NCBI RefSeq assembly: GCF_048403405.1 | Contig: NZ_CP183129.1 | Origin: Escherichia coli | Lineage (GTDB): Bacteria > Pseudomonadota > Gammaproteobacteria > Enterobacterales > Enterobacteriaceae | Strand: one strand, 5' to 3' | DNA: 64,000 nucleotides | Part shown: positions 33,403-42,622 of the stretch, in pieces | Layout: the number at the start of each line of letters is the position of its first letter | How positions within the stretch are numbered: the stretch's first letter is position 1 | Notes under the pieces: model-generated | What the model was told of the DNA's origin: nothing | Seen by the model: only the letters and a program-made list of their open reading frames with translations | Database searches by the model: none | Program-made: the position numbers and the translations under genes

Positions 33403-34085
<683 letters not shown>

Positions 34086-34099
34086 AACCTATTTCTTCA

Positions 34100-37060
<2,961 letters not shown>

Positions 37061-37585
37061 TTGTCATCCCTCCTCAGGGACGTAATAAGTTGATCCATCA
37101 ATTATCAATGCATAGAAAACATATTATGTTTCGCGTTGACGATTATGCGGCGTTATAGAGGAATGGTTCAATTATTCTTTCCCCTAAGTCCGATTGCGGA
37201 CATATATAAAGCACGTGAACACACACACAGAAAGAAATAACAAAAACACAATATTTCAATACGTTAATGAAAGCGTTAATTTTAAAACATAGACCATGAA
37301 AATATAAAACAACTAAAACAGACAAATAATGTATCAATAAGCAATGAACTTTAAGTTATTCGCTTTTTGAAAACGTCACCAAATCCCCAAAAACAATAAT
37401 CTATGGCTATAAATAAAAATTAAAAATATTTTCAGTGAATATGAAATTATTGCTATTTCTTTTACAAAGATGTCCTGGCCTCTCTTCCATTCTCTTCTTG
37501 TCAACATCGCGACAACTTTCGTAAAACATCCCCACCCTGCTTCAGGTATACTATGCCCCTCGATTCCACAAACATCAGGCAGACC

Positions 37586-38560
37586 ATGACAGACTTAATC
37601 CAACGCCCTCGTCGCCTGCGCAAATCTCCTGCGCTGCGCGCTATGTTTGAAGAGACAACACTTAGCCTTAACGACCTGGTGTTGCCGATCTTTGTTGAAG
37701 AAGAAATTGACGACTACAAAGCCGTTGAAGCCATGCCAGGCGTGATGCGCATTCCAGAGAAACATCTGGCACGCGAAATTGAACGCATCGCCAACGCCGG
37801 TATTCGTTCCGTAATGACTTTCGGCATCTCTCACCATACCGATGAAACCGGCAGCGACGCCTGGCGGGAAGATGGACTGGTGGCGCGTATGTCGCGCATC
37901 TGCAAGCAGACTGTGCCAGAAATGATCGTCATGTCAGACACTTGTTTCTGTGAATACACTTCTCACGGTCACTGCGGTGTGCTGTGCGAGCATGGCGTCG
38001 ACAACGACGCGACTCTGGAAAATTTAGGCAAGCAAGCCGTGGTTGCAGCTGCTGCAGGCGCAGACTTCATCGCCCCTTCCGCCGCGATGGACGGCCAGGT
38101 ACAGGCAATTCGCCAGGCGCTGGACGCTGCGGGCTTTAAAGACACGGCGATTATGTCGTATTCGACCAAGTTCGCCTCCTCCTTTTATGGCCCGTTCCGT
38201 GAAGCTGCCGGCAGCGCATTAAAAGGCGACCGCAAAAGCTATCAGATGAACCCAATGAACCGTCGTGAGGCGATTCGTGAGTCACTGCTGGATGAAGCCC
38301 AGGGCGCAGACTGCCTGATGGTGAAACCAGCTGGAGCGTACCTCGACATCGTGCGTGAGCTGCGTGAACGTACTGAATTGCCGATTGGCGCGTATCAGGT
38401 GAGCGGTGAGTATGCGATGATTAAGTTCGCCGCGCTGGCGGGTGCTATAGATGAAGAGAAAGTCGTGCTCGAAAGCTTAGGTTCGATTAAGCGTGCGGGT
38501 GCGGATCTGATTTTCAGCTACTTTGCGCTGGATTTGGCTGAGAAGAAGATTCTGCGTTAA
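37586..38560 (+). CDS. hemB: Porphobilinogen synthase (delta-aminolevulinic acid dehydratase)
   Basis: Matches Hem[40 protein letters not shown]...; start at the ATG at 37586 (324 aa). Confidence 0.95.
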
Positions 38561-38599
38561 TGTTCATTATGCCGGGTTATCCAACCCGGCATTTCCCCC

Positions 38600-42014: not shown

Positions 42015-42622
42015 GATTGTCTGCTCCCCTGTCTTGTTATAGGAGCAGTATTCAGGAATAAAAACATTCATTAAAAGAATTAGTCGTTATCGCACAGATG
42101 ATTTTATTCTTAGCAAAAAAGCGGCAAAGGAAAGATTAAATATGCAATTACACCCACTCTGACAATTCAGTAAGTTACTGCACTTCATTTTTATTAATGC
42201 ATAAACAAGCAGAACATAATGTCTTTTATTTTATTAACAGCAATACATATAATGAAATCATTATATTCACATTGCATATATAACTGTATCATTCTCAATC
42301 AACCACATAATACATTCACATAATGTATATAATCCATATTTGTGCCTAGAACATATTTTTAATATGTAATTAATTGACAAACTAAATCACATCTAAATAC
42401 AATATATAAAACAAAATAACTATACAAACCAAACACACAAACACTTAACATATGAACTACATAAAAGATTACGCAGTCGTATCCCCGTACCTGAAAGCCC
42501 CTTATTTTTCAGCTATCAGTAATTTTTAACACTTAAAAATTAGCATCTGTCTGTGCCAGAGATTACGTCTCTGCGGGCATCGTTGTGCTTGTAGTATAAT
42601 AAATAAAATGGAGTGTCATTAA

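Follow-up and report, generated by a model that had tools for sequence, protein, structure and literature searches.

The ehaB-hemB locus

The window, i.e. the whole stretch of 64,000 nucleotides of Escherichia coli DNA which was analysed, carries the genes ehaB and hemB in divergent orientation, and the spacer between both genes comprises exactly the positions 37061-37585 (525 bp). The following features were assigned to the genes and to the spacer:

34112-37060, minus strand: ehaB (yaiT in K-12), intact gene of an autotransporter adhesin of 982 aa; ORF with start at 37060
37061-37136, minus strand: predicted 5' leader of ehaB, ~75 nt; start predicted from the position of the -10 hexamer
37069-37073, minus strand: Shine-Dalgarno sequence GGAGG, inside a hairpin (TCCCT 37076-37080 / AGGGA 37067-37071)
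37142-37147, minus strand: ehaB -10 hexamer CATAAT, from a promoter scan; unchanged in 10 E. coli alleles and in 39 species
37166-37171, minus strand: ehaB -35 hexamer TTGAAC, from a promoter scan; invariant across genera
37188-37201, no strand: palindrome GTCCG-N4-CGGAC, ~50-65 bp upstream of the predicted ehaB start; candidate transcription factor site
37211-37405, no strand: hypervariable AT-rich core, 195 bp, GC 0.25-0.31; likely H-NS platform, judged from composition and the Salmonella orthologue
37219-37229, plus strand: ACACACACACA tract, (CA)5; one match vs. 0.05 expected per window in shuffled sequences
37406-37512, no strand: AT-rich segment, conserved within E. coli, not across genera
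37513-37529, plus strand: box ACAACTTTCGTAAAACA, upstream of the hemB -10 hexamer and conserved across genera; candidate for a -35 region or an activator site
37547-37552, plus strand: hemB -10 hexamer TATACT; T-A-n-A-n-T in all genera, and a G at -14 is likewise conserved
37559-37585, plus strand: predicted 5' leader of hemB with predicted start at about 37558-37560; TTCCACAAACATCAGGCAGACC conserved
37586-38560, plus strand: hemB, encoding a porphobilinogen synthase of 324 aa; 555 bits against the NCBIfam equivalog NF009923

In NCBIfam/Pfam profile searches, the product of ehaB matched the autotransporter barrel TIGR01414 and the Pfam families Autotransporter and AC_1. The same gene is annotated as ehaB in O157:H7 and in strain ST2747, which is ~99% identical to the window across 64 kb and carries an identical spacer. 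The yaiT of K-12 is a pseudogene split by IS3. The name yaiT was used in the original prediction; the window contains the intact ehaB and not the split pseudogene. EhaB is known as a laminin- and collagen-binding adhesin and as a biofilm factor of pathogenic E. coli. Between the window and O157:H7, the passenger part of ehaB (35361-36760) shares only 62-91% identity, whereas barrel, signal peptide and flanking genes are 96-100% identical; which passenger allele is present does not depend on the spacer haplotype (see below). The HemB protein (WP_001295337.1) was identical in all E. coli strains examined.

Two observations were made in the vicinity. In the corresponding region of the ST2747 record, the annotation gives frameshifts for frmA and araJ and truncations for yaiS and proC. 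Downstream of hemB, the spacer to tauD (38561-38599) comprises 39 bp with a GC hairpin in the window, and 106 bp of an unrelated, G/C-rich and repeat-like sequence in K-12 and O157:H7 (L002, 7499-7604).

Distribution and age of the spacer

The spacer was found in 5421 of 5426 complete E. coli genomes. A HemB scan with one genome per species yielded 80 loci, 39 of which contain iprA, ehaB, the spacer and hemB in the same order. The genera with this arrangement include Escherichia, Citrobacter, Enterobacter, Lelliottia, Kluyvera, Pseudocitrobacter, Yokenella, Trabulsiella, Pluralibacter, Leclercia and Kosakonia. All 39 species representatives have a spacer of 389-617 bp with a GC content of 0.32-0.44, the GC content of the locus being 0.48-0.59. 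A 2026 preprint on the Salmonella orthologue SeaB reports the same synteny and dates the gene to before Salmonella, E. coli and Citrobacter split.

The original prediction had compared the region to horizontally acquired DNA. This is not supported: the arrangement is common to 39 species representatives from many genera of the Enterobacteriaceae, and the SeaB preprint takes the same view. A patchy distribution or absence from relatives, as expected after a recent acquisition, was found neither among the complete E. coli genomes nor among the species representatives. The synteny shared across genera, taken together with the preprint, thus indicates an old locus which has been maintained vertically. 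The ehaB-hemB spacer is an ordinary, ancient, AT-rich divergent promoter region and does not change the current understanding. Bacterial genomes have a deletion bias. Since a long AT-rich spacer persists in 39 species despite this bias, the spacer appears to be maintained.

Losses at the locus were seen as well. In about 43 of the 5421 genomes, the spacer is present only partially or in two pieces, which suggests further IS insertions or deletions in this AT-rich DNA. In Salmonella enterica subsp. diarizonae (loci L030 and L094-L101), seaB/ehaB is reduced to a C-terminal remnant of 72 aa, and the palindrome upstream of hemB and the -10 region are kept. When the exact HemB protein encoded at locus L030 of subsp. 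diarizonae was used as query, all loci obtained lacked seaB, as L030 itself does.

Composition of the spacer

The predicted 525-bp AT-rich divergent region was confirmed in its coordinates and its composition: the GC content is 0.343 in the spacer and 0.291 in 37161-37500, vs. 0.514 in the whole window, which corresponds to an AT content of 65.7% in the spacer and 71% in its core. Among the 41 spacers of ≥ 30 bp in the window, it ranks second in length and fourth-lowest in GC. Across the 64 kb, only the region upstream of tauA has a lower 400-bp GC minimum than the spacer (0.292). Runs of at least four A or T number 15 in 525 bp (28.6/kb vs. 10.4/kb in the window), and TpA steps have a frequency of 0.084 in the spacer vs. 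0.045 in the window. The A-tracts and the CA tract pointed out previously are thus indeed present, the latter as ACACACACACA at 37219-37229. Repeat searches of the spacer gave only weak AT-rich matches, and Tandem Repeats Finder reported no array.

H-NS-silenced promoters typically exceed the AT content of the genome clearly for a few hundred bp; this was found here and likewise in the 39 species. The AT-richness is not due to chance, since all 39 species representatives with ehaB beside hemB keep an AT-rich spacer. AT-biased mutation alone roughly yields a GC content of ~0.28-0.34 in unconstrained DNA. Because mutation bias gives a similar GC content, composition alone is no proof of selection for H-NS binding.

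With a GC content of 0.25, the 400 bp richest in AT in the window lie in 42057-42585 upstream of tauA, in a spacer which is longer than that between ehaB and hemB. This spacer is hyperdivergent from K-12 as well (71-88% identity). Higashi et al. 2016 list ampH and the tauABCD unit as H-NS-bound (PMC4720273; tauABCD in table S2).

Promoter, palindrome and leader of ehaB

On the ehaB side, the sequence TTGAAC-18-CATAAT was found, in which the hexamers are conserved and the 18 nt between them vary freely; the distance falls within the 16-19 bp of σ70 promoters. Because invariant hexamers flanking a variable spacer are the classic signature, the ehaB promoter was assigned to σ70. The position of the -10 hexamer predicts a transcription start at about 37134-37137. 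Between TTGAAC and the palindrome lies an A/T-rich stretch. In scans of the whole spacer, matches to promoter and terminator consensus sequences were not enriched compared to shuffled sequences, and a 'terminator' at 37228-37211 was rejected, as it consists of the CA tract.

The palindrome GTCCG-N4-CGGAC has its sole perfect copy in the window here and is found at an equivalent position in nearly all ehaB loci. Across genera, the 4-nt centre varies between conserved arms; changes in one arm are not compensated in the other. In the E. coli alleles of group III (see below), one arm reads TGGAC. The winged-helix gene iprA adjoins ehaB in 39 of 39 loci, which makes IprA a candidate regulator; upstream of iprA, the palindrome is absent. 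A classification of IprA as a Crp/Fnr-type protein was discarded, since a PDB sequence search gave only one weak match of the FadR-type wHTH kind and odd matches to phycobilisome linkers. Around iprA or the ehaB-iprA spacer, a HusR SELEX peak has been reported (PMC12844172), and a CyuR site has been predicted upstream of yaiV (PMC11408624).

In the leader, CCCTGAGGAGGGATGAC (37063-37082, minus strand) around the Shine-Dalgarno sequence of ehaB is invariant across the 39 species or changed by one base (in four). The hairpin is seen in the MFE fold; the overall fold of the leader has a z-score of -1.7, which is not significant. The AGGGAUG near the Shine-Dalgarno sequence resembles the core of the CsrA binding consensus. 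Together with the conserved hairpin, this hints at translational control.

Elements upstream of hemB

The box ACAACTTTCGTAAAACA matches the consensus TTGACA poorly. A natural deletion bears on the assignment of the hemB promoter: in strain 4848 (L013, 2930-3060; about 37537-37585 of the window), an IS1-associated event removed ehaB and nearly the whole spacer. Only ~50 bp upstream of hemB are left, with TATACT kept and ACAACTTTCGTAAAACA lost. The IS1 end provides TTGGCA 18 nt upstream of TATACT and thereby forms a natural hybrid hemB promoter. The survival of TATACT in this deletion supports its assignment as the -10 hexamer of hemB.

Haplotypes of the hypervariable core

Between the two promoters, from 37211 to about 37500, no conservation across genera was detected. 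Within E. coli, the core falls into three deep haplotype groups with p-distances of 0.26-0.38 between and 0.02-0.11 within groups. The window allele belongs to group I together with its relatives, that of O157:H7 to group II and that of K-12 to group III; among the 5426 genomes, 1573 belong to group I, 407 to group II and at least 3152 to group III. The core has a length of 192-195 bp in all haplotypes, with almost no indels and a constant GC content of 0.25-0.31. Across 37406-37585, the mean pairwise distance of the E. coli alleles is 0.067.

At flanking four-fold sites, the same pairs of strains differ by 0.057-0.111; hence, the divergence of the core is 2.6-6 times as high. K-12 and O157 are the closest pair at the flanking four-fold sites, but not in the core. 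The 5' coding alleles of ehaB, the core haplotypes and the SNP haplotypes proximal to hemB occur in all combinations, which means that the region is a recombinational mosaic. The core of E. albertii has a distance of 0.35-0.42 from all E. coli groups, and that of a cryptic Escherichia genome is nearest to group II (0.17-0.18). A fourth haplotype, from a genome labelled E. coli SCPM-O-B-8794 (L014), was not accepted as a further group, as none of the 5426 complete E. coli genomes contains it; its lineage may be unsampled among complete genomes.

The deep core haplotypes illustrate how much regulatory variation can hide beside a perfectly conserved housekeeping gene. It is conceivable, though distinctly unlikely in our estimation, that three or more old 'allotypes' of the core are kept by selection and recombine independently of the passenger alleles, causing heritable differences in the silencing of ehaB, and that the palindrome is an IprA operator in an adhesin-regulator module of iprA and ehaB. 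If this were true, lineages would differ heritably in how tightly, or to what signal, ehaB is silenced.

Silencing by H-NS

In S. Typhimurium, the gene yaiU (i.e. seaB, the positional orthologue of ehaB) had previously been reported as H-NS-repressed (PMC10657408). Its promoter binds H-NS in EMSA and ITC, with Kd values of 0.29-0.46 µM across the four promoters tested, and is occupied by H-NS in ChIP-qPCR (PMC10657408). Binding of H-NS to this promoter is inhibited by c-di-GMP, and in the c-di-GMP-blind mutant hns(K107A), yaiU expression is decreased and H-NS occupancy increased (PMC10657408). The EMSA probes of that study have an AT content of > 57.9% (PMC10657408). The ChIP reverse primer used (PMC10657408) is identical to positions 37061-37081 of the window (21/21); of the EMSA primer, the 12 nt at the 3' end are the same as 37141-37152, i.e. 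the -10 region of ehaB. These primer matches show that the Salmonella probes cover the counterpart of the ehaB promoter and its AT-rich upstream DNA. By orthology, we infer that H-NS binds the ehaB spacer in E. coli as well. In the accessible papers and supplements, no E. coli data on H-NS occupancy or hns-mutant expression at hemB/yaiT were found.

Further reports concern the neighbourhood. A genomic SELEX study of constitutive RpoD promoters in K-12 has no entry for the hemB-yaiT spacer, but the yaiU-yaiV (ehaB-iprA) spacer is given there with a constitutive promoter and an H-NS site (PMC3946193); iprA and this spacer lie at about 33403-34111 of the window. In Salmonella, a SoxS ChIP-seq peak has been reported in the hemB<>yaiU spacer. 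According to the SeaB preprint, EhaB and SeaB must be over-expressed for their adhesion and biofilm phenotypes to be seen, which fits a low native expression of ehaB.

Within the spacer itself, the H-NS high-affinity consensus TCGATAAATT was searched with up to two mismatches and was not enriched (2 hits vs. 1.3 in shuffled sequences). AA/TT dinucleotides show no periodicity of 10-11 bp, i.e. the A-tracts are not helically phased. Thus, A-tract curvature is not supported; neither a nucleation motif nor curvature is, however, obligatory for H-NS silencing.

We consider it probable that the 525 bp form a shared regulatory region of ehaB and hemB, in which the AT-rich centre serves as a platform for H-NS to silence ehaB and hemB has a separate promoter. 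The ~150 bp beside ehaB would contain a σ70 promoter, the upstream palindrome and a leader of ~75 nt with the Shine-Dalgarno sequence in a hairpin. The central ~200-300 bp, with 70% A+T, would be the binding platform, of which length and composition are kept and the sequence is not. From there, H-NS would spread or bridge over the ehaB promoter, and ehaB would be silent in ordinary growth until the silencing is relieved. The last ~75 bp before hemB would hold its own promoter, by which the housekeeping gene could be expressed independently. Of the original reading as a silenced, horizontally acquired promoter, the silencing gains support from the H-NS-bound and H-NS-repressed orthologous promoter of Salmonella; the horizontal origin and the CA tract as a meaningful feature are not supported. 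The probable silencing of the ehaB promoter by H-NS would explain why phenotypes appear only on over-expression, and the promoter map shows which DNA of ehaB to fuse, delete or swap.

Alternative explanations

The central AT-rich stretch could be functionless filler at mutational AT equilibrium, with ehaB being run by the proximal elements and by factors other than H-NS. The missing sequence conservation across genera in 37211-37500, the lack of enrichment of the H-NS consensus and the unphased A-tracts are in line with such filler. The natural IS1 deletion indicates that the spacer is dispensable for hemB function, and the hyperdivergent AT-rich spacer upstream of tauA would make hyperdivergence a general property of AT-rich spacers in this region. 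However, filler does not account for a spacer of 389-617 bp persisting in 39 of 39 species, nor for a core held at 192-195 bp among haplotypes which are 26-38% apart. Neutrality at an ordinary rate does not explain a core divergence of 2.6-6 times that of flanking four-fold sites with a discordant genealogy, and in Salmonella, H-NS occupies the counterpart in vivo and represses it. Filler is therefore unlikely, although not far-fetched. That the composition is shaped by an unannotated gene for a small RNA or a small protein in the core is very unlikely. ORFs of 42-64 aa are found mechanically on the minus strand, but these are hit by stop codons or loss of the start codon in other haplotypes; an Rfam scan of 36500-38200 on both strands gave no matches with E up to 1, nothing is annotated under the spacer match among the matches listed (of 5422), and conservation across genera is missing.

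The low GC content of the region, the GC content of ehaB (0.42-0.53, somewhat below the genome) and the IS elements which hit the locus (IS3 in K-12, IS1 in strain 4848) might be taken to indicate a mobile element scar or the border of an island which was acquired recently. Against this stand the synteny conserved across many genera, the presence of the spacer in 5421 of 5426 E. coli genomes, an annotation without tRNA or integrase context, and the absence of direct or inverted repeats on either side apart from weak AT-rich matches, so that we regard an island or scar as highly improbable. Least credence of all is given to the (CA)n tract as a slippage-prone switch for phase variation of ehaB. 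The tract is seen once where 0.05 copies are expected per window, and at least two of the 1532 genomes with the window allele have (CA)4. Yet it consists of just five units, Tandem Repeats Finder reports no array for it, and (CA)6 occurs in none of the 1532 genomes. It is confined to haplotype group I, with versions altered by point substitutions in groups II and III, and it lies ~85-95 bp upstream of the predicted ehaB start, outside the spacer between -35 and -10. Because the tract is located upstream of the -35 hexamer, is restricted to one group of alleles and has a near-constant length, it is not a phase-variation device based on a simple sequence repeat; as a meaningful feature, the tract is not supported.

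Comparison with known systems

The closest counterpart of the proposed H-NS-silenced ehaB promoter is PyaiU, the seaB promoter of Salmonella. It has the same position between hemB and the autotransporter gene, AT-rich upstream DNA, a ribosome binding site region identical to the window (21/21) and a shared -10 region. The two differ in that the H-NS assays were done in Salmonella only and that the AT-rich core has no sequence similarity between the genera.

H-NS-repressed promoters are known for several autotransporter adhesins of E. coli, such as UpaC and UpaG/EhaG, which are mostly lineage-variable genes. They are surface adhesin genes with AT-rich upstream DNA, like ehaB, and are silent in laboratory culture, as ehaB probably is. 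In contrast, ehaB resides at a near-universal and anciently syntenic locus.

Regulatory regions which are switched or transferred horizontally were reportedly described by Oren et al. in 2014 and are the subject of the 'switched IGR' concept of Piggy. The ehaB-hemB locus shares with these the near-identical flanking genes and the deeply divergent spacer alleles, which recombine independently. Unlike switched IGRs, however, the ehaB-hemB alleles are collinear, of equal length and alignable, and are not unrelated replacements.

Higashi et al. 2016 reported that H-NS-bound upstream spacers of E. coli evolve faster than unbound ones, with ybdO as a worked example (PMC4720273). Like the ehaB-hemB spacer, these spacers are AT-rich and located upstream of a gene, with a conserved position and a sequence far more divergent than the flanks. 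Spacers of more than 300 bp were excluded in that study, hence the ehaB-hemB spacer is not part of the set (PMC4720273). In the ehaB-hemB spacer, divergence likewise exceeds that of the neutral flanks in DNA which is presumably H-NS-bound, and it differs in extent: the core haplotypes are 0.26-0.38 apart vs. medians of ~0.017 in the 2016 set, and recombinational reshuffling is added. The core is thus an extreme example of the pattern already described for fast-evolving, H-NS-bound spacers, and not a new one.
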